Positions 10,379 to 51,658 of a DNA stretch of 64,000 nt are shown one piece after another. The notes beneath the pieces are model-generated. The model saw only the letters and a program-made list of their open reading frames with translations. It had not been told where the DNA came from and did no database searches. The position numbers and the translations under genes were made by a program. How positions within the stretch are numbered: the first letter of the stretch is position 1; every line of letters begins with the position of its first letter. Source of the DNA: an uncultured Bacilli bacterium (lineage in GTDB: Bacteria > Bacillota_I > Bacilli_A > RFN20 > CAG-826). The stretch covers positions 51,500 to 115,499 of the forward strand of contig CALWDE010000002.1 of assembly GCA_944376605.1 (NCBI GenBank), read 5' to 3'.

Positions 10379-11158
10379 ATGAGACTCGCAGAGAAAATCC
10401 GAATCATCCGTAAAGCACGCGGGATGTCACAGGAACAATTGGGCTATGCTTTGTCTGAAAGCGGAATCAGCCGGCAATCAATCTCGAAATGGGAAAATGG
10501 CGACACCGAACCGACATTGGACAACATTCGCACGCTTGCGAAAATCTTCAATGTATCCTTTGACGCCCTTCTAGACGAAGGCCTAGACCTAAATGACTCG
10601 GTGACCTTGGCAGCGATCTTGAATAAAGAAGGTTTTGCGGTTCGCAAGAACATATTTTCCACAACGAAATATCACATTTATCAAAAACTTCTTAAAAAGA
10701 AGGCGATAAAACGCTTCGTCATTAAATCATTGATTGCCCTTGCCGTCGGTGTAGTCGGAGCCGTTATCAGCGTAATATCGCTACCACTCGAGCCACTAGT
10801 AGGTGGAATCATGCTTGGTATAGGTCTCTCATTAAGCGCCGTTGGACTAGCCTTCCTCTTGTCGTGCTTCATAACCGTGTTTTACAACATTTATGAACGA
10901 GTCTATGTTGGCGTTTTGGATGATCGGGCTTTAAGGCTGAACACAGGCAATATTGGCGACGGAACTATTTATATTCCGCTTGAAAAAATCGAAAAAATCG
11001 AAATTACAAATGAGAAGAAAAGCGAAGTTGGTATCTTTGTCTTAGGCAGAGCAAAGCCAATTCGTTGTCCCTACATTGTTCAGCCAGAGAAACTGCTTCA
11101 ATACTGGGCTGGTCTCCGCGATTTCATCGAAAATCCCGATGGAATCAAAATTTTATAG
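10379..11158 (+). CDS. XRE-family HTH regulator with two TM helices and a C-terminal soluble domain
   Basis: MSQEQLG...ISRQSISKWENGDTEP HTH; two hydrophobic segments; AGGAGG SD. Confidence 0.85.
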   Translation: MRLAEKIRIIRKARGMSQEQLGYALSESGISRQSISKWENGDTEPTLDNIRTLAKIFNVSFDALLDEGLDLNDSVTLAAILNKEGFAVRKNIFSTTKYHIYQKLLKKKAIKRFVIKSLIALAVGVVGAVISVISLPLEPLVGGIMLGIGLSLSAVGLAFLLSCFITVFYNIYERVYVGVLDDRALRLNTGNIGDGTIYIPLEKIEKIEITNEKKSEVGIFVLGRAKPIRCPYIVQPEKLLQYWAGLRDFIENPDGIKIL

Positions 11159-11591
11159 AGTGACTTGCAAATGCGGCCATGTTGGCCTCGACAGATTCGT
11201 CCGCATCGATTTCCCAATCATGGCAGAGAACGCCCATGAGGCTACTTTAGCTGCCCGCTGGCTTCCAAGGGTTAAACACCATAAGAAAGATGCCGTTTTG
11301 GAATGCCGTGAAATCGATTTTGAGGAATATCAGATCCTTCAAAAAATCAATAATGAGGATCCTTATCTCAAATGCTCGAGCCGGCAAGAGCAGGATCTTA
11401 GCCCAGAGATCATGGAGAGGACCGAAAAAGAAGACGCCATCTCCGATCAACATATCAAACATTCCAAAAGAGATATCCTTGCCTATCGCTTAAAGAAAGC
11501 CAAAGAGAAGATCGATTCGATTTTGGAGTATGCCAAGGAGGATGCCTCCTACTGGGATCTGAGTTTGGAATCGGAGGTAGGATTGGATTAA
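11139..11591 (+). CDS. Hypothetical 150-aa protein (CKCGHVG...PRVKHHKKDA), possibly nucleic-acid binding
   Basis: ATG 11139 overlaps the end of the XRE gene; island-like codon use; basic N-terminal alpha/beta pattern. Confidence 0.7.
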   Translation: MESKFYRVTCKCGHVGLDRFVRIDFPIMAENAHEATLAARWLPRVKHHKKDAVLECREIDFEEYQILQKINNEDPYLKCSSRQEQDLSPEIMERTEKEDAISDQHIKHSKRDILAYRLKKAKEKIDSILEYAKEDASYWDLSLESEVGLD

Positions 11592-11600
11592 AATAAAAAA

Positions 11601-11740
11601 GTAGATGAAAGCTGAAACGCCTCAGGTAGATTGAATAGATCGCCCAGGCGCCCTCAGGGTTGCTTCCATCTGGTTAGATTGCGAAAGCAGGCGACCAGCG
11701 GAAGAACCCGTCGGTCGCCTTTCTTCTCTTGGGAGAGAAA
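11601..11740 (+). ncRNA. Structured leader RNA with mutually exclusive antiterminator/terminator hairpins (family not recognised)
   Basis: Long GAAA-capped hairpin 11657-11709 competes with terminator stem 11689-11696/11713-11720 plus a pyrimidine run; four TAGAT copies. Confidence 0.55.
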
Positions 11741-11741
11741 T

Positions 11742-14700
11742 ATGAAGAGAGTCATCGCAATAATCGCTACCAGGGATCGCCCTAAGCTATTGGAGAACGC
11801 GGTCCTTTCGGCATTGAGCCAGACTTTGAAGGCGTGCGAAATCATCGTCTCTAGCGATTCAATAGAAGAAAACTTCGAATCGGAAAAGGCATTCCTAAAG
11901 GGGAAAGCTACCCTGATTCGAAACAAATATGCGCACAACTATGGTGGGAACCTGAATACCGCCATCGACTACCTTCTTGAGGAGCATCTCGGGGATAAAA
12001 CGTTTTCCTACGAAGAAACCTATCTTGCCTTCCTTGATGACGACGATGTTTGGCACGTCGACTACTTGGAAAGATGCGTCGCCGAATTGAAGCCAGATGT
12101 CGATATGGTGGTGGGGCTCATCCACTACCTAGCCGATGGTAAAGACTTCATCCTAGACCTGCCCGAGGAACTCAACCAGAAGAGCTTTTTGGCGGTCAAT
12201 CCACACGTTCAAGGATCGAACACCTTCATCCGCTTGAAGACCCTTTTGATGGCTGGCGCTTTCGATGAAGGGATATCCAGCACGACCGACCGCGATTTCT
12301 TTACCCGCGTGATGATGCTCAATCCAAAGGTCGCCTACATTCCCCACCCATTATTGGACGTTGATGCCCACGATGACCGCCCAAGGCTTACCAACAGCTC
12401 ATCCGGAAAGAAAAAGAGCCTGGCATATTTCTATTCTAAGTACGCCGGCATCATGGATGAGAACATCGAGGAAGTTTTCTTCAAGCGGGCTCTCCGTTAC
12501 ACGGATCTCAGCAAAGACGAAGTTGCAAACCGAATCCCGCAATATCAAGGGGAACCATACAAACCATATTCTGATTCACCGTTCGGTGGCCGCCTGGTCA
12601 TCGGGTTCATAACCTCCGATGAGGCCTTGTCTTCCCGTTTGCTGGACGATATTGATAGCCAAAATATCGAAGATTTGAAAGTAGTTGTGTTCTTCAACGG
12701 AGAAAATCCCAGCGCCGAATATCGGAAGCGGGTTGAGCGGCTCGGCCTTCTCTTTTCCTTGAATGAAGCGAAATCAGATCTTGGCAAAATGCCTTACGCC
12801 GACTATATTCGGCCAAGCCTTATTCGCGGGAGCCATATCGAGGATATCGCCTGTTCGCGGATGGTCCTCCATTATTATTTGAAGGAAAACTCAAAGGACG
12901 GGGATGCCATTTGGGTGTTCGATGAAGACATGCGCTTGATGAGCGTCGTCCGAGAAAACGGGGCTTTCAAAACTATTCCGCTGGATATAAAGGTGGTTAC
13001 TTCTCATTTCTTTGGGAAAGCCGATGTGGTGGTAGGTTCCTATTCGGGCGATGCCCCTTTGCCAACCCTATCTGTTTTGCGGACTTCCTTGGTGGATTAC
13101 GTATATGCCGAAAAGCTAAACAAATCCGGCTTATATCAGACTTCCTGCTATGGCAAACGCGACTATTACTATGACCTTTCCGAAGACCACACGGCGTTGG
13201 AATGCCCGTTGCCAATCGGAAAAGGCGAAACTTTAGAGGAAATCCTTTCCGGGAAGGGAGTCTCCCGCAAACTCTTTGTAGGCGAAGAAAGCGTTTTTGA
13301 GCCTTATTCTAGAGGTGGCAATACGCTGATTTTCAATCGCGATGCTTTGGATGTCCCTAATTTGTCTGCCGTTTTCGACAACACCATAGCCAGGAGAAGC
13401 GATTATTTTTGGGTGCAGATGCTCAAGAACCTCGGCTACACAGTGCTGGGCTCGAGCTTCGCCACATTGCACAATCGCCCCATCCAGGAGTTTGACATGA
13501 GACGGGAGACGGAGAAATCCCTAAAGGACCTATTGGGCTCTAGCTTCACCAAGGCAATGGAAAACCCCACGACGAAGAGCAGAGAAGGATATCTAAAGAA
13601 CTTCACGGCCGAATTCAAAAAGAGGTTGGTCAGGCTCATCGATTCGCTTTATCGCGACTTAGGCTTGTTTCAAGTTCTTGGTCGCGCCCAACCCTTTGGC
13701 GAAAGCGACATCAAAAACCTAGTGAGGAAGGCTTTGGCATTTCTAGACGAATCAACGGTCATCGCCTCGTATGAGTTCGTCCGGTCGATGGAAATCAAAT
13801 ATCTGGCATCAAGGAAGTTCCTGAAACTCGCCAAAGACAACGGATTGTCGCTGCCTGCGCTTTTGGGAATGGGAAATGAGGGGGCGGTATTCCGAAAAGG
13901 GAAAGAAGTCATCAAGGTTTTCTACGATGATTTCGATACCTCAATCCTCGAAAAATATGGCCAGGAGTTTGGCAAATCAGACCAGCTGTTCCCGATTAAG
14001 GTCATCAAGGAATATGGCCACACGACGATTACCTATGAGTGTCCGGAGGCGGCCGAGGCATACGAATCGGGCCACGCGATCGAGATTGCTCGGCTGATAC
14101 GATTCCTACGAAAGCGCGGCTTGGTTTTAAAAAACATCAAGCGCGACAACTTCCTTATCGTTAATGGGGCGCTTCGATTTGTAGATTATGGCAAGGATAT
14201 CGTGCCTTTGACGGATGCAAACTACGAAGCCGAGGTCAAGCGGGCATATGAGATGATCCGCTACCCGAACCTCACCGTCCCCGAATACAAGAAAGTGGTG
14301 GCCATGTCGCATGTTGGGGAAGACGGCCCACTTTGCTTTGGCATCGAAAACTTCAAAAAACTAATCGAGGTCCGTTCCAAGGAAAGCATTCATGATGGCT
14401 ATGTGCTTAAGCGGATTGCTGAATACCATCCTGACAGCATCCTCGATTACGGGGCGGGAAAATGCAAAATCATCAATGCCGCCCACGCCAAAACAAAGGC
14501 GGCATTCGATATCGACTCGTCGATTGTGAGATCTAGGGCGAACCATGACGTCAGAATCATAGAAAACATCGACGAGGAGCATGCTATTTACGATTTGATT
14601 ACCTGCAATCTCGTCCTTTGCGCGACGGATTCTGCGTGGGATGAAAAAATCGTCAGGAACATCCACCGCCTCCTGTGCGAAGATGGGCATGCCATCATCA

Positions 14701-17078
14701 GCGTGTGCGATATGTTCTTCGATGACGTCCAGCGCACCGAGACGCGCCAAAGCGGTTATTCTGGCAAATATGAGTCCGAGGCCCTTTATGGCAAGGCAAC
14801 GCCTTTAGGCATCCATAAGGATTATCACAAGAGCTTCGGGTTTTACGAAAACCTCTTCCGCCGAAATGGCTTTGAGATTGTGTCCGTTCAAGAAGACGAT
14901 GGCGTGGATGTTGATAGCCTCAATTCAATTGGTGAACACCTGATATTCGATTTGAAGAAGAAAGAAGCGCACGTGCTTTCGGACTGCTCGCTCCTAATAA
15001 AATGCTGTGCGATGGATCATGGGGTCGTCGATCCTTTTATACGTTCGATGATCCGCAAACTCGAAAACGGAGTCTGCTTCGCCGAGCGAATTGTTGTGGT
15101 GGACGGGAAGAGGACGAATCGCAACCGGGCTTACCAAGAAGATGACGAAGCTGCGCTTAAAAGCCGTTTGGAGTCATTGGGCAAGGAAGGGCTCATCGAT
15201 CGGATTGTATATTGCGATAACGCCAAGGGATTCGAGGCTTACCGCAAATACTTTGGAAAGAGCTGCACGGAAGCCTATGCCGAGAACGGGCAGCAATTGC
15301 TGACCACACTTAAAGGCTTTGACGCGATTAAGACGCGCTACGTCTTCCAAACCGATGTGGATATCGCCTATTTTGGAAACGATCACGATGAATTCTACGA
15401 AGAGTTTGCGCGTTTTAGGAAATCCCAGGCAATCGTCGGAACGCCTAGCGTTCTTCATCTTGATGAAGGCAAAACGGAATTTGGAAAACGGGTTGAGGTG
15501 CGTTCTTGCTTCATAGACATCGAAACTTTGAAAAACCGTCTCCCGATTGAAAACCCAATCAATGATGGAAAGTTTGCCTTGCCATGGCATCGAACTCTGG
15601 ATGCCACTATTGATGCCAATGAAAGCATTCGATTTCATCACAAGGGCTTTGGCTTCATCCATTTCCCAAATGGTACGAAGAAAAACCCGAACTTCATATC
15701 CGCGGTGCTGAACGCAAAGAAGATCCCGGCTGCGCAATATGGCTCGGTGGATGTCGTGGGGGAAGAAAAGGATTGGCTTCCTCAGATCAAAGACGGCCTG
15801 ATTGTTTTCTCTCGCGGCCGGAACGTTGAGCTGGAGAGGTCAAAGCGTCTTCTTGATTCGATTTCAGCCCAAAACGAAGGTTTCCATTTCATTTATTTTG
15901 ATGATTTCTCAGTGAGCAAAAACGCCGAATATCTTCGGATGAAATTGACTTACGACCCAGTGCTCAAAGGAAAGTCTACGCTCGTTTCCAATGCGCGCAG
16001 GGTGTCTTCTTTGGCTAACTTCGAGAGAATGCTTTCGATGGTCATTAATCCCAATGCCATCATCGTGAACGTGGATGGGGATGACGCTTTGATTGGGGAA
16101 AACGCATTGTCCACAATAAGGGATAGCTTTGACGAAGGGGCGGATCTCACCATCGGCAATTGCCTGAGGTTTGATAAGCCTTTGAGGAGATATGCGCTTG
16201 AATCGTTCCGCTCGGCGTGGGATAGGGGCGGAGACAACATCTGGTGCCATCCCAAATGCTTTATGAGATATCTTGCTGGCTATATCGGAAACAACCTAAA
16301 GGATCCGCAAGGCGACTACATTGAAGTGGCCACTGACTATGCGATGATGCTGCCGATGGTTGAGGCGGCCAGGCACCCTGAATTCATTGACGAGGTCATC
16401 TATTTCTTTGACCCGTCCGAGGAAAACAAAACGAGAACTAAACAATATGAAATCAACAAGAAAGGAAAGGTTAAAGCGATGTTTCTAGAAAAAGCGAAGG
16501 CAATGTCAAAGAAACCGATTGTCGCCATCATCGGCGATGCCGGAATAAAGGAAGACGATCCTAGATACAAGATAGCCCGCGAGATGGGCAAGGCTCTGAT
16601 CGAAAACGGGTATCGCCTCCAAAACGGCGGGATGGACGGCGTGATGGAAGCCTCTTCGAAAGGCGCCCATGACGCCAAAGAATACGAGTTTGGGGATACC
16701 ATCTCGATCCTTCCTGGCAGCGATGAAAGCGAAGGGAACATCTATGGCGATCTTAAAGTCGCTACCGGAATGGACCATAAACGAGCGGAGCTTGTCGTGG
16801 ATGCCTCTGCCGTCATCGCCATTGGCGGTGGCAGCGGAACACTGGAGGAAATCGCCGTTGCCTGGGAAACCTACAAGCTCATCATTGCCTTCGAAGGCGT
16901 CAGTGGCTGGAGCGGTAAAGTCGCCAATACGAGAATCGACGACCGCAAACGCTATAAAGACATTCCGGAAGATAAGGTCTTCGGCGCGAGGACGGTCGAC
17001 GAAGCCTTGGCGGTTATCAAAGCATACAGAGAACGCTACACGAAGGAATACCAAGGAATAAAGATGAAAAAGAAATGA
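11742..17078 (+). CDS. Multidomain GT2-GT-kinase-SAM methyltransferase-GT-GT2-SLOG/LOG fusion (~1778 aa)
   Basis: FLDDDD and VFDEDM (GT-A); GMGNEGAV..IKV..NIKRDNF..VDYG (kinase-like); ILDYGAG (MTase); FQTDVD and VDGDD (GT-A); GGMDGVMEA..AIGGGSGTLEE (LOG-like). Start set at ATG 11742 after GGGAGAG. Confidence 0.85.
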   Translation: MKRVIAIIATRDRPKLLENAVLSALSQTLKACEIIVSSDSIEENFESEKAFLKGKATLIRNKYAHNYGGNLNTAIDYLLEEHLGDKTFSYEETYLAFLDDDDVWHVDYLERCVAELKPDVDMVVGLIHYLADGKDFILDLPEELNQKSFLAVNPHVQGSNTFIRLKTLLMAGAFDEGISSTTDRDFFTRVMMLNPKVAYIPHPLLDVDAHDDRPRLTNSSSGKKKSLAYFYSKYAGIMDENIEEVFFKRALRYTDLSKDEVANRIPQYQGEPYKPYSDSPFGGRLVIGFITSDEALSSRLLDDIDSQNIEDLKVVVFFNGENPSAEYRKRVERLGLLFSLNEAKSDLGKMPYADYIRPSLIRGSHIEDIACSRMVLHYYLKENSKDGDAIWVFDEDMRLMSVVRENGAFKTIPLDIKVVTSHFFGKADVVVGSYSGDAPLPTLSVLRTSLVDYVYAEKLNKSGLYQTSCYGKRDYYYDLSEDHTALECPLPIGKGETLEEILSGKGVSRKLFVGEESVFEPYSRGGNTLIFNRDALDVPNLSAVFDNTIARRSDYFWVQMLKNLGYTVLGSSFATLHNRPIQEFDMRRETEKSLKDLLGSSFTKAMENPTTKSREGYLKNFTAEFKKRLVRLIDSLYRDLGLFQVLGRAQPFGESDIKNLVRKALAFLDESTVIASYEFVRSMEIKYLASRKFLKLAKDNGLSLPALLGMGNEGAVFRKGKEVIKVFYDDFDTSILEKYGQEFGKSDQLFPIKVIKEYGHTTITYECPEAAEAYESGHAIEIARLIRFLRKRGLVLKNIKRDNFLIVNGALRFVDYGKDIVPLTDANYEAEVKRAYEMIRYPNLTVPEYKKVVAMSHVGEDGPLCFGIENFKKLIEVRSKESIHDGYVLKRIAEYHPDSILDYGAGKCKIINAAHAKTKAAFDIDSSIVRSRANHDVRIIENIDEEHAIYDLITCNLVLCATDSAWDEKIVRNIHRLLCEDGHAIISVCDMFFDDVQRTETRQSGYSGKYESEALYGKATPLGIHKDYHKSFGFYENLFRRNGFEIVSVQEDDGVDVDSLNSIGEHLIFDLKKKEAHVLSDCSLLIKCCAMDHGVVDPFIRSMIRKLENGVCFAERIVVVDGKRTNRNRAYQEDDEAALKSRLESLGKEGLIDRIVYCDNAKGFEAYRKYFGKSCTEAYAENGQQLLTTLKGFDAIKTRYVFQTDVDIAYFGNDHDEFYEEFARFRKSQAIVGTPSVLHLDEGKTEFGKRVEVRSCFIDIETLKNRLPIENPINDGKFALPWHRTLDATIDANESIRFHHKGFGFIHFPNGTKKNPNFISAVLNAKKIPAAQYGSVDVVGEEKDWLPQIKDGLIVFSRGRNVELERSKRLLDSISAQNEGFHFIYFDDFSVSKNAEYLRMKLTYDPVLKGKSTLVSNARRVSSLANFERMLSMVINPNAIIVNVDGDDALIGENALSTIRDSFDEGADLTIGNCLRFDKPLRRYALESFRSAWDRGGDNIWCHPKCFMRYLAGYIGNNLKDPQGDYIEVATDYAMMLPMVEAARHPEFIDEVIYFFDPSEENKTRTKQYEINKKGKVKAMFLEKAKAMSKKPIVAIIGDAGIKEDDPRYKIAREMGKALIENGYRLQNGGMDGVMEASSKGAHDAKEYEFGDTISILPGSDESEGNIYGDLKVATGMDHKRAELVVDASAVIAIGGGSGTLEEIAVAWETYKLIIAFEGVSGWSGKVANTRIDDRKRYKDIPEDKVFGARTVDEALAVIKAYRERYTKEYQGIKMKKK

Positions 17079-17938
17079 ACATCGATTTACATTGTCATTG
17101 CGCGCCTTACTCGACCTGCGCTACCCAATCCATCGACGAGTTGCTGCTTAGAGCCAAAGAAGGCGGCATCAGAACCCTCTCTATCACGAATCACGACACC
17201 ACAAAAGACGAAGACCTCTTCGAAAAAAAGGCGGTGGCCATGGGCTTTGCTTACATCAAAGGCGCTGAACTTGGAGCGAGTTTGGCGGAAGAGGGGCTTG
17301 GATTTCCCAAAGGCGCGAAGATCCACATCCTGGCTCATGCATATAAAGATGGCGACTTAATCGAATCCGTTATGCAGGATGTCAAAAACGGCTCCGAGAA
17401 CGCCAAAATAAAAAGGGCGAGGGGCGAATATATCGCCAAGCGCTTCAACGACCTCTCACTAAGCGGCCTTACAAAGCAAAGGCTCATTGCTTGCTTGGTT
17501 GAGAAAGGCCATTTCATCGATGTCGGGGCTGCCAAGGAATTCTTCAGGAGCCCCGAGATCAGTGATGGCTTCGCATTGCATTGCCTTGGCCCAAAGGAAA
17601 CAATCGATTTGATACATAAAGCGGGCGGCTTCGCGACTTGGGCTCATCCATTCCGCGGGGAGCATCATTACAAATTCAACGAAGATGACGTGAAAGCAAT
17701 TCTCACAAAACTCATTGCTTATGGTCTTGATGGCCTGGAGTGCTTCCATTCATCCAATTTTGAGGCCGGAGCCGTGGATCTATTGAGGGCATTGGCAAAG
17801 CAGTATGGCCTATTTGAGACGATTGGCAGCGACCGCCATCACAATCGCCCGATGCCTTATTTCTCATTTGAGAAAAGCATGACGGCAAGTTATGAATCAG
17901 AGATTGATATTGGCAAAATCCAAGGAGGCAATTTATGA
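17075..17938 (+). CDS. PHP-domain phosphoesterase
   Basis: IDLHCH, ITNHDT, GAEL, AHP and GSDRH metal-binding motifs; ATGA overlap with the upstream gene. Confidence 0.88.
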   Translation: MNIDLHCHCAPYSTCATQSIDELLLRAKEGGIRTLSITNHDTTKDEDLFEKKAVAMGFAYIKGAELGASLAEEGLGFPKGAKIHILAHAYKDGDLIESVMQDVKNGSENAKIKRARGEYIAKRFNDLSLSGLTKQRLIACLVEKGHFIDVGAAKEFFRSPEISDGFALHCLGPKETIDLIHKAGGFATWAHPFRGEHHYKFNEDDVKAILTKLIAYGLDGLECFHSSNFEAGAVDLLRALAKQYGLFETIGSDRHHNRPMPYFSFEKSMTASYESEIDIGKIQGGNL

Positions 17939-18720
17939 AAATCGGAATTATCGGCGACGGACACGTCGGTGGGGCGATGAAGAATCTATTCAAGTCCGCC
18001 TGTGTTTATGACCCTTACAAGAACGAAGGCACGAAAGAGGAAATCAATCAGTGCGATGTGGCTTTCATTTGCGTGCCAACCCCGATGGCGGAGGATGGCT
18101 CATGCGACGCCTCGGCCGTGGAAGAGGTCATCTCTTGGTGCAAAGCCAGACTGATGGTCATCCGTTCGACAGTATGGGTCGGCTTCACCAAGGCGATGAA
18201 GGATAAATATAACAAAAGAATCGTCTTCCAGCCGGAATATTACGGCGAGACTGTAGCGCACCCATTCGCGGATTTGTCCACAAGGCAATGGCTGTCTTTT
18301 GGAGGCTCGGCCAAAGACGTTGCCTTAGCGGTGCAGGCTTATCAAACCGTCATGACTTCTAATGTTGAAATCCATCAGGTTGGGGAGTCCGAAGCGGAGA
18401 TGGCAAAATACATGGAGAACTCGTTTTTCGCCGCAAAAGTAACCTTTGTGAATGAGATATATGACCTTTGCGAAAAGCTTGGAGTTGATTATGAGCAAGC
18501 AAGGGAAATTTGGGTGGCCGATCCTCGCATAGGCAAGAGCCATACCTTCGTCTATCCCGACAATAGAGGTTATGATGGACATTGTTTGCCAAAGGATATT
18601 TCCGCGTTGCAGAAGCAGTTTGAGGACAATGGCGTTGATTGCATGATGATCAAAGGCATCATGAAGAAAAACGACTACTATAAAAAGCAACATGCTCGAT
18701 TAAACCTTTATTCAAGTTGA
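17935..18720 (+). CDS. UDP-glucose/GDP-mannose dehydrogenase family protein, short form
   Basis: GxGxVG, FICVPTP, IRST, QPE, EMAKYMEN, DPRIG and GHCLPKD motifs; lacks the usual C-terminal domain. Confidence 0.88.
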   Translation: MKIGIIGDGHVGGAMKNLFKSACVYDPYKNEGTKEEINQCDVAFICVPTPMAEDGSCDASAVEEVISWCKARLMVIRSTVWVGFTKAMKDKYNKRIVFQPEYYGETVAHPFADLSTRQWLSFGGSAKDVALAVQAYQTVMTSNVEIHQVGESEAEMAKYMENSFFAAKVTFVNEIYDLCEKLGVDYEQAREIWVADPRIGKSHTFVYPDNRGYDGHCLPKDISALQKQFEDNGVDCMMIKGIMKKNDYYKKQHARLNLYSS

Positions 18721-50197: not shown

Positions 50198-51658
50198 ATG
50201 AAATCAATCGTCATTGATATTGGCGCCTCTTCTTATCGAGTAATGCTAGTTTGCTACCAAAATCACCGCTTCTTTTACGAAGAACTTATGCGGGAAAAAA
50301 CCGAAGCGTTTTATGATGGCATGTATTTGCGGTGGAATCTTACCTCTTTGAAAGATAAGGTTATTGATTGCATCCAAAAAACATTAAAAACTAGCCAAGA
50401 TGTCCAAAGCATTGGAGTTTGTAGCTTTGGTGTGGACTATATCTATCTTGATAAGGAAGGGAAACTTATTGATGAACCGATTTCTTATCGAGACAAACAT
50501 AACGAAGATTATGCTGCTTCTGCCTTAAAAGTATTCTCTCAAGAAGATATTTATGAGGAGACTGGCATTCAGTTTTTACCCTTTAATACGGTTTTCCAGT
50601 TATACCGGGATCAAAAGATTGGGCGAAAGGGTGAGAGTCTCTTAATGATTAGTGATTATCTTTCTTATTGCTTAAGTGGCGAGAAAACAAATGAGATTAC
50701 AGGCCTTTCTACCGGCGCATTAATCGCAGCAAAAACAGGAACTCTTTCTTCTTTTATTTGCCAAAAGTTCTCTATTTCTCCCTCTTTATTTCAAAAAGTT
50801 ATGAAACCTGGCGAACAAATTGGTTATTTAAAAGAGGAATATTTGCCTAAAAAAGGATTAAAAATCCCTGTTATTGCGGTCAATACACATGATACTTCTA
50901 GCGCGGTAACTTCTCTTCCTTTAGCAAAAGAAAGGGAAGAAGCTTTCCTCTCTTGTGGTTCTTGGGCTCTTTTAGGAAAAAAGAAAACAGCGTTCACTTT
51001 GTCTTCTCTAGCACGAGAAAAGAACTTTACGAATGAATGGATGGATGACGGAATTTGTTTTCTTAAGAACGTGAATGGTCTCTACCTCATTAATGAACTT
51101 TATCGCGCCATGAAAAAAGAAGATCCATCTCTCCTTTTTCCATCATCCATGAAGGCTTTTACAAAAGAAGATGAGACTAATTTATTTATAAACGTCAATG
51201 ATCCGCTTTTATCGAGCCCAGAGAATCTACTCTCTCACTGGCAAGAGTACCTATCTCAAACCAAACAAAATTCTTCTTATTCGTTTTCTCAAATTGTTAC
51301 CTCTTTCTACAAATGTTTAGCTTTTGCTTTAAAAGAAGAAGTAACACATTTAGAAACGTTAGAAGGAGAAAAGATTAAGAAGTTATATCTAGTCGGGGGA
51401 GCTGCCGATATTCCCGCTTTTGTTCAGCAGTTTGCTACTTTGCTTGGGGTTCCTATTTGCTGCGGATTTAAGGAAGCTACTGCTTTAGGCAATGCAATGA
51501 TTCAAATTTCCTCTTTAGAAAAGATTCCAATGGAAAAATTAAGAGAGGAGCTATATAGGCAAGAAGAATTAAGTGTTTATTACCCAAGAGAAGAAGATAA
51601 AGAAAAAGTATTTCAAGAATTTCGAAAATACCAGGAGTTTCAAAAGGAGAACCTATGA
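50198..51658 (+). CDS. rhaB: Rhamnulokinase
   Basis: IDIGASSYR, GVDY, TGIQFLPFNT, HDTSSA, SCGSW, NFTNE, EATALGN. Confidence 0.88.
   Translation: MKSIVIDIGASSYRVMLVCYQNHRFFYEELMREKTEAFYDGMYLRWNLTSLKDKVIDCIQKTLKTSQDVQSIGVCSFGVDYIYLDKEGKLIDEPISYRDKHNEDYAASALKVFSQEDIYEETGIQFLPFNTVFQLYRDQKIGRKGESLLMISDYLSYCLSGEKTNEITGLSTGALIAAKTGTLSSFICQKFSISPSLFQKVMKPGEQIGYLKEEYLPKKGLKIPVIAVNTHDTSSAVTSLPLAKEREEAFLSCGSWALLGKKKTAFTLSSLAREKNFTNEWMDDGICFLKNVNGLYLINELYRAMKKEDPSLLFPSSMKAFTKEDETNLFINVNDPLLSSPENLLSHWQEYLSQTKQNSSYSFSQIVTSFYKCLAFALKEEVTHLETLEGEKIKKLYLVGGAADIPAFVQQFATLLGVPICCGFKEATALGNAMIQISSLEKIPMEKLREELYRQEELSVYYPREEDKEKVFQEFRKYQEFQKENL

Follow-up and report, generated by a model that had tools for sequence, protein, structure and literature searches.

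In a 64,000-nucleotide stretch of DNA from an uncultured Bacilli bacterium (GTDB lineage Bacteria; Bacillota_I; Bacilli_A; RFN20; CAG-826), here called the window, the bases at 11601-11741 appear to form the messenger RNA leader of an operon for a giant glycosyltransferase-methyltransferase-SLOG protein. Our analysis suggests that this leader is a new and rare OFF switch of the riboswitch type, governed by a putative effector, and from predicted folds and the comparison of orthologous operons we give this reading a probability of roughly 0.55. The window covers positions 51,500 to 115,499 of contig CALWDE010000002.1 (assembly GCA_944376605.1, 1.18 Mb and 96.6% complete; genome G000 below). The original prediction, made from the letters of the window alone, had proposed a novel riboswitch or protein-dependent attenuator at this place. 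That proposal gains support from the recurrence of the leader in seven of ten orthologous operon types, from covariation, from the lack of a match in Rfam and from the same terminator/antiterminator logic.

The leader and its competing folds

The leader lies in the intergenic space 11592-11741 between two plus-strand open reading frames (ORFs) of 150 and 1778 codons (Table 1). The pairings listed there by the original prediction are all present in the sequence. Hairpin A pairs CTGA..CGCCT (11612-11622) with AGGCG..TCAG (11646-11657), and the long hairpin B is assembled from GGGTT/AACCC, CTTCC/GGAAG, CTGGT/ACCAG and TGC-GAAA-GCA. Terminator C joins AGGCGACC (11689-11696) to GGTCGCCT (11713-11720) and is followed by TTCTTCTCTT, while the ribosome-binding site (RBS) region, GGGAGAGAAA, stands immediately 5' of the ATG at 11742 and can indeed pair with the pyrimidine tail. 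Hairpins B and C exclude one another, as had been proposed, since 11689-11709 are common to both. What had been overlooked is a three-way junction, the likely sensor, and the thermodynamically best fold is not A plus B. The minimum free energy (MFE) structure of the window leader instead combines this junction (P1 11602-11612/11662-11672, P2 and P3) with terminator C and a hairpin between tail and RBS, and has a small GAAA hairpin between junction and terminator; the tail/RBS hairpin is present in the full-length MFE structure and absent from the centroid structure. For 11592-11750 the MFE is -55.2 kcal/mol (z -3.06, 1 of 200 shuffles as good), and the fold of 11601-11744 has a z-score of -3.19 (2 of 200 shuffles as good).

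The junction also accounts for a feature that had attracted attention at the outset, the four plus-strand copies of TAGAT at 11602, 11627, 11636 and 11675. They lie within 78 nt, where the density of the word in the window (167 copies on both strands) leads one to expect about 0.1 on one strand. The copies had been placed in unpaired regions, but three of the four are helix strands, one being the 5' strand of P1 and two the opposing sides of the P2 apex. The repeats arise because a GAUG/CAUC-type stem is used in both P1 and the P2 apex (window 11602-11640), as it is in most of the seven leaders described below.

When the window transcript is folded as it grows, the junction is predicted at 70-100 nt, A plus B take over at about 106-112 nt, and junction plus terminator return once the 3' strand of the terminator is present. 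For nucleotides 1-112, hairpin B is favoured by 4.8 kcal/mol over the best fold that contains P1, and the duplex between the P3/P1 3' strand and the 5' segment of the terminator reaches -20.0 kcal/mol, which 6 of 500 shuffles match. In these models A plus B and junction plus C are two alternative states of one leader, in which B takes up the 3' strands of P3 and P1 and hairpin A is the read-through form of P2.

In the model that we propose for the operon, transcription would start a few bases before P1, and the first ~72 nt would fold into the three-way junction, the conserved sensor. An effector, most likely a small molecule, would lock the junction, whereupon the terminator hairpin and its U-rich tail would form; in transcripts that escape termination the Shine-Dalgarno sequence would be paired with the tail, leaving the operon off. 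With the junction unlocked, the 3' strands of P3 and P1 would be drawn into hairpin B together with the 5' half and loop of the terminator, P2 would extend into hairpin A, the terminator would be blocked, and the operon would be both transcribed and translated. We infer the OFF polarity from which strands are common to sensor and antiterminator, and the use of the switch in vivo and a metabolite as its effector are likewise inferred.

In the near-identical G228 (locus L013), 3 of 221 aligned bases differ from window 11540-11760, none at a helix position: one at 11578 in the upstream ORF, one at 11594 (T to C, the last base of the -10 box) and one at 11623 (C to G, in an unpaired bulge of P2). 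A ~97%-identical strain in four chicken-gut runs (contigs, probably of DNA) spans the leader and has one A fewer at 11595.

Recurrence and covariation among orthologous operons

Uncultured Bacilli genomes and metagenome contigs provide ten distinct types of orthologous operon: G000 (with the near-identical G228/L013), G008, G555, G117, G187, G308, G319, G160, G191 and contig L018. The giant proteins of the other operons are only 37-45% identical to that of the window, and seven of the ten types (G000, G008, G555, G117, G187, G308 and L018) have the same leader layout, in which a sigma-70-like promoter is followed 6-11 nt downstream by the junction, then by an alternative hairpin, an intrinsic terminator and an RBS. 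In all seven, a promoter with 9-12 of 12 consensus matches has a -10 box that ends 6-11 nt before an invariant GAU in P1 (9 nt in the window, where the promoter overlaps the last codons of the upstream ORF). The leader stands between this promoter and the first ORF, which starts no more than ~25 nt past the U tract of the terminator. Promoters with 11-12 of 12 matches and canonical U tracts are found in G008, G308 and L018; in L018 the motif lies before a radical-SAM gene that precedes the giant gene. The G+C content of the seven leaders ranges from 27 to 53%.

Each leader was folded up to the base just before the 3' strand of its terminator and compared with folds in which P1 was forced. For six of the seven, P1 is missing from the best pre-terminator fold, which is favoured by 3.6-12.6 kcal/mol over any P1-forced fold; the G008 leader makes the change a little further on, at 100-106 nt. 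In every one of the seven the alternative helix involves the 5' strand and loop of the terminator. Much of the alternative pairing in G008 and L018 is supplied by linker bases, and the terminator loops of G117 and L018 show complementarity to the 5' strand of P1. A direct duplex test beats shuffled sequences in four leaders (G000 6/500, G555 1/500, G117 7/500, G187 4/500). A terminator and a mutually exclusive alternative pairing that uses part of the sensor are predicted in six of the seven leaders by fold energy, with the later change in G008, and in four by the duplex test; in L018, P1 and the antiterminator can coexist. The RBS is masked in the terminator-containing MFE folds of several leaders by different means: by pairing with the tail in the window, by the terminator's own 3' strand in G117, and by a helix that encloses the terminator in G008 and G187. 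The z-scores of the folds are -3.19 for G000, -4.99 for G008, -6.09 for G187, -3.52 for G308 and -5.43 for L018, with weaker values for G555 and G117.

Plain MAFFT failed to align the leaders in structural register, and covariance models were built stepwise (R1, R2, R3), R1 from the window leader alone and R3 from five leaders. R1 matches the G308 leader at 28.9 bits (E 2.4e-9) despite the G+C content of 27% in that leader and 53% in the window. It scores G008, G187 and G117 at 6.2, 5.8 and 5.4 bits, in register and not significant, and did not find G555 in register. In a 124-kb search R3 finds both held-out leaders in register, G555 at 25.8 bits (E 0.0043) and L018 at 18.8 bits (E 0.2).

In the resulting alignment (A12; seven sequences, 25 pairs), 89.7% of the cells form standard pairs, against 71.3% in shuffles, none of 500 of which reaches this value. 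Compensatory changes among homologous leaders, which the original prediction had named as a test, are present: 15 of the 25 pairs change on both sides, a figure attained by 1 of 500 shuffles, and such changes occur in all three helices, including 8 of the 12 modelled pairs of P2. The covariation score is 0.478, compared with 0.04-0.08 when the partners are slid by one to three columns, and in these slid controls 28-46% of the cells are paired. Invariant across the seven are the GAU and AUC of P1, two A residues in J1/2 and one C-G pair in P3.

R3 was run on two samples of 151 genomes each, where its hits were confined to carriers of the giant gene: G000 and G117 in the sample of the order, and G000 alone in that of the class. 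The genome of the window has a single copy of the leader, a DNA search of 40 relatives with the 150-nt leader gave chance matches of 15-24 nt only, and the motif pattern has no match in viral contigs. A degenerate pattern for the 3' half, made from G000 and G008, was discarded: 20 of its 23 matches in 401 genomes lack the 5' half and look like coding sequence. A search of G319, G160 and G191 with R3 gave no convincing motif, the contig of G191 starting only 198 nt before the gene, so that no statement is possible for that operon. The ~130 nt that precede the gene in G160 (locus L110) have a 3' end resembling that of G117 (…GAGGUUUUAUUAUG with the ACUUAUCAA word); R3 detects no junction in them, and by its sequence this leader may be a decayed copy of the switch.

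Against the 4227 models of Rfam 15, with the gathering threshold of each family as criterion, the window leader has no match, the best overlap being ctRNA_pGA1 at 18.7 bits (gathering threshold 45, E 1.3). Nothing relevant was found for the G008 leader, and six leaders searched together gave only hits with E of at least 0.42, below gathering. The original prediction had not placed the leader among the riboswitch families known to it. A known repeat, which would have told against regulation, was not matched either, and the idea of a repeat element was rejected because the genome has no second copy. Readings of CUGA/GAUGA as hammerhead-like or K-turn, made by eye, were also set aside; the words are not conserved and have no Rfam match. 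Literature searches, in listings and abstracts, gave no description of this leader and no nucleotide-sugar riboswitch.

Effector, polarity and rival explanations

Several observations weigh against the leader being an effector-controlled switch. The giant gene can do without the motif, as G319, G160 and G191 have none that is detectable. The A12 alignment was fitted to the structure of the model, and its shuffle control overstates significance, since there are only seven sequences, which are kin and all stand upstream of one gene family. The duplex test fails in three of the seven leaders (G308 68/500, G008 236/500, L018 169/500), the antiterminator of L018 is able to coexist with P1, and fold z-scores are weak in G555 (-1.26) and G117 (-2.17). 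In the window itself a simple terminator scan does not call the terminator, because its stem has an internal mismatch and its tail is interrupted by a C; its promoter is the weakest of the seven leaders, weaker still in G228, so that in both promoter and terminator the window departs furthest from the canonical form. Finally, the invariant GAU/AUC of P1 and the recurring GAUG/CAUC-type stem are unusual for the P1 of a riboswitch and could be a protein-binding word.

A small molecule is favoured as effector because the cassette occurs in three bacterial families amid unrelated neighbourhoods, and because the genome lacks the attenuator proteins CAT_RBD, HutP and TRAP while a candidate protein, the one of 150 residues encoded just upstream, is absent from the other loci. 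The different neighbourhoods in the three families imply that the effector is either ubiquitous or encoded by the module. If the junction binds a metabolite, it represents a new riboswitch class. In its fuller form this idea, that the junction is the aptamer of a new class whose ligand has no known riboswitch and that the switch travels with the module between families as a regulated cassette, is tentative, and we hold it to be well short of an even chance. The ligand might then be a nucleotide sugar or a capped glycan precursor of the giant enzyme; it might also be a nucleotide-derived signal whose loss, for example during phage attack, would switch on a module that sits among defence-type genes. 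If so, the ligand would be the first functional clue to an 1,800-residue multidomain enzyme that moves between uncultured gut Bacilli beside defence-type genes. The general importance is limited unless the ligand proves to be new, as the class is rare, like the giant gene that carries it (counts below).

A serious rival, clearly less probable in our estimate than the metabolite-controlled switch, is that the same switch is locked at its junction by a protein or other macromolecule, either a product of the operon (the dehydrogenase-like protein or the giant enzyme, acting in autoregulation) or an RNA-binding protein of the host. Repeated short words are typical of protein-dependent attenuators, and both the invariant GAU/AUC and the stem repeated in P1 and the P2 apex would suit protein recognition, as would the small number of invariant bases in the junctions. 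The dehydrogenase-like gene is moreover the only constant partner of the giant gene and the better conserved of the two, at 59-63% identity. Against this, the repeated words are base-paired and not single-stranded. The TAGAT words are irregularly spaced, unlike the regular single-stranded (G/U)AG triplets of TRAP or HutP targets. Pfam finds no RNA-binding domain in the module. CAT_RBD (PF03123) was not found in the 96.6%-complete genome G000, with a control positive in 4 of 14 known genomes, nor were TRAP and HutP (PF02081, PF09021), with controls positive in B. subtilis. A search for ANTAR (PF03861) matched nothing in G000 and, as its control, nothing in 14 known genomes, and so carries no weight. 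The original prediction had considered the 150-residue protein as a partner of the switch, which is not likely: no homologue of its ORF or of the helix-turn-helix (HTH) gene upstream turned up around nine other orthologous operons, for four of which the sequence extends 1.3-9 kb upstream, and both therefore fall outside the conserved module.

It is improbable, but less so than the explanations that follow, that the leader is a conserved and constitutive structured 5' untranslated region, which might serve transcript stability or processing or hold expression at a low level as a fixed partial terminator, with the alternative hairpin a by-product of helices that share sequence. A complete terminator is present in the full-length MFE structure of five of the seven leaders, together with P1 in three (G000, G008 and G187), and the limited reach of the duplex test and the three operons without the element fit such a role as well. 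However, a strong terminator between a consensus promoter and its sole ORF, as in G008, G308 and L018, makes little sense without an override, and the P1-disrupting alternative recurs in sequences that have diverged independently.

We regard it as very unlikely that the structure belongs to a small RNA gene, to an antisense transcript of the minus strand or to the terminator of the upstream 150-codon gene. The minus strand folds well (z -3.93), and the upstream gene of the window, which runs in the same direction, has no other terminator, but in all seven leaders the promoters, the U tracts and the placement immediately before the ORF indicate the plus strand. The terminator cannot serve an upstream gene, since G008 has an opposite-strand ORF directly upstream, the nearest upstream ORFs of G117 likewise run against the giant gene, and the motif of L018 has a consensus promoter before it. 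Attenuation by a leader peptide, in which the AUG of the conserved GAUG would open a short ORF whose translation selects between the hairpins, is hardly credible: an AUG stands at the start of P1 in five of the seven leaders, with ORFs of 5 to ~43 codons counted by eye in G000, G008, G555 and G117, but no Shine-Dalgarno sequence precedes it, it is not at the very 5' end, the ORFs are conserved in neither length nor sequence, and G308 and L018, which read GAUA, contradict the mechanism for want of a start codon.

The giant-gene module and likeness to known systems

The features of the leader and of the genes around it are collected in Table 1. The giant gene is rare. Three of 41 close relatives match its N-terminal query, one of them by a weak match to GT2 only, which leaves two true carriers counting G000. 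Of 401 sampled genomes of the order nine carry it, five of these with the motif; among 400 genomes of the class there are three carriers, and the same three of 400 were met in the phylum sample, where a phylum-wide protein search gave no additional orthologue. A metagenome scan added four full-length loci, three of them identical to G008 in the leader. The giant protein has no relative in viral contigs, and plasmids gave only GT2-domain matches.

The truncated dehydrogenase-like gene accompanies the giant gene elsewhere, whereas a PHP gene is seen only in the operon of the window. In L018 (1251-8644) the giant enzyme is split into three ORFs of 1637, 642 and 191 residues, the last of which is a stand-alone SLOG/LDcluster4 protein, and the radical-SAM gene separates the leader from the first of these. 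Among the neighbours of the module in other genomes are a DUF4238 protein, an AAA_13/SMC-like ATPase, a GIY-YIG protein, an RNase_T exonuclease and an RHS-repeat protein, and by their gene content these neighbourhoods appear to be mobile or defence-type. PADLOC matched only the HTH gene, and that through generic HTH models. The simple scan calls a terminator-like hairpin at 11120-11146, in the overlap between the HTH ORF and the 150-codon ORF that follows it.

Table 1. Coordinates of the leader elements and of genes in and around the operon (window positions unless a locus is named).
Feature	Position (strand)	Description
Sigma-70-like promoter	11565..11594 (+)	TTGGAA, 18-nt spacer, TAAAAT; 9/12 matches
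Sensor (aptamer-like) domain, predicted	11601..11673 (+)	three-way junction P1/P2/P3; from MFE, model R3 (69.5 bits) and covariation (A12)
P1, 5' strand	11602..11612 (+)	UAGAUG-A-AAGC; GAU invariant in 7/7 leaders
Junction J1/2	11613..11617 (+)	UGAAA; two A residues invariant in 7/7 leaders
P2, long hairpin	11618..11650 (+)	base CGCCU/AGGCG, the core of hairpin A; apex GAUU-GAAUA-GAUC
P3, short hairpin	11651..11659 (+)	CCC-UCA-GGG, 3 bp
P1, 3' strand	11662..11672 (+)	GCUU-C-CAUCUG; AUC invariant; common to antiterminator
Alternative long hairpin B (putative antiterminator)	11657..11709 (+)	P3 and P1 3' strands pair with 5' half and loop of terminator
Terminator-like hairpin (C)	11690..11719 (+)	GGCGACC-A-GCGG, loop AAGAAC, CCGU-C-GGUCGCC; U-rich tail UUUCUUCUCUU to 11730
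Tail/RBS hairpin	11720..11738 (+)	pyrimidine tail 11720-11727 with Shine-Dalgarno region GGGAGAGA 11731-11738
XRE-type HTH gene	upstream, within 10379-11591	259 aa; generic HTH matches to PADLOC RmrA, capH and control-protein models
Upstream ORF	11139..11591 (+)	150 aa; no Pfam or PADLOC match; outside the conserved module
Giant gene	11742..17078 (+)	1778 aa; GT2, methyltransferase and SLOG/LDcluster4 domains
PHP gene	17075-17938	downstream of the giant gene
Truncated UDP-glucose/GDP-mannose-dehydrogenase-like gene	17935-18720	UDP-glucose-dehydrogenase-like; after the PHP gene
Same gene, other loci	L012 9923-10696; L097 3443-4198 (-); L098 3520-4293 (-); L018 8641-9411	
Leader motif in L018	L018 337-407	before the radical-SAM gene
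Neighbours in other genomes	L097 96-3097 and 9749-10582; L098 2087-3508; L018 10494-11951	mobile or defence-type by gene content

Among known systems, the nearest in design are the OFF riboswitches of Bacillota that couple a three-way-junction aptamer to a transcription terminator, such as the guanine/purine riboswitch (RF00167). Like the window leader they have a promoter-proximal three-way junction of ~70 nt, the 3' strand of P1 being common to the antiterminator, and then a terminator. In OFF riboswitches of the purine type the effector-bound state is the OFF state, as proposed here. The leader differs in having no match to the purine or any other Rfam model, in the invariant GAU/AUC carried by its P1 and in being found only before one mobile giant-enzyme gene; nor is a loop-loop contact between P2 and P3 of the purine type possible, as P3 has only 3-4 bp and a variable loop. 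Riboswitches that combine a terminator with sequestration of the Shine-Dalgarno sequence offer a second likeness, the RBS of the window leader being likewise paired in the predicted OFF conformer, whereas among our leaders this masking varies in its means, is seen in MFE folds only and is absent from the centroid of the window.

Attenuation through the ribonucleic antiterminator (RAT) with BglG, LicT or SacY, or through TRAP, HutP or PyrR, likewise involves a leader terminator, an RNA element that overlaps its 5' strand and repeated short words, and the window hairpin at 11672-11696 looks loosely RAT-like. Inspection by eye found no counterpart of this hairpin in the other six leaders, however, and in further contrast to these systems the repeated words are base-paired and the operon is not a phosphotransferase system, his or trp operon.

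The Breaker and Weinberg laboratories have reportedly compiled lists of orphan riboswitch motifs by comparative genomics, many of which are probably contained in Rfam 15, where no family matches. Orphan riboswitch candidates of this kind (PMC8632094, PMC11109978, PMC5737381) are, like the window leader, rare and conserved structured leaders with an expression platform. An aptamer joined to a competing antiterminator and terminator is textbook, and what is new in the leader of the giant-enzyme operon is the fold of its sensor and the signal to which it would respond, rather than the mechanism.

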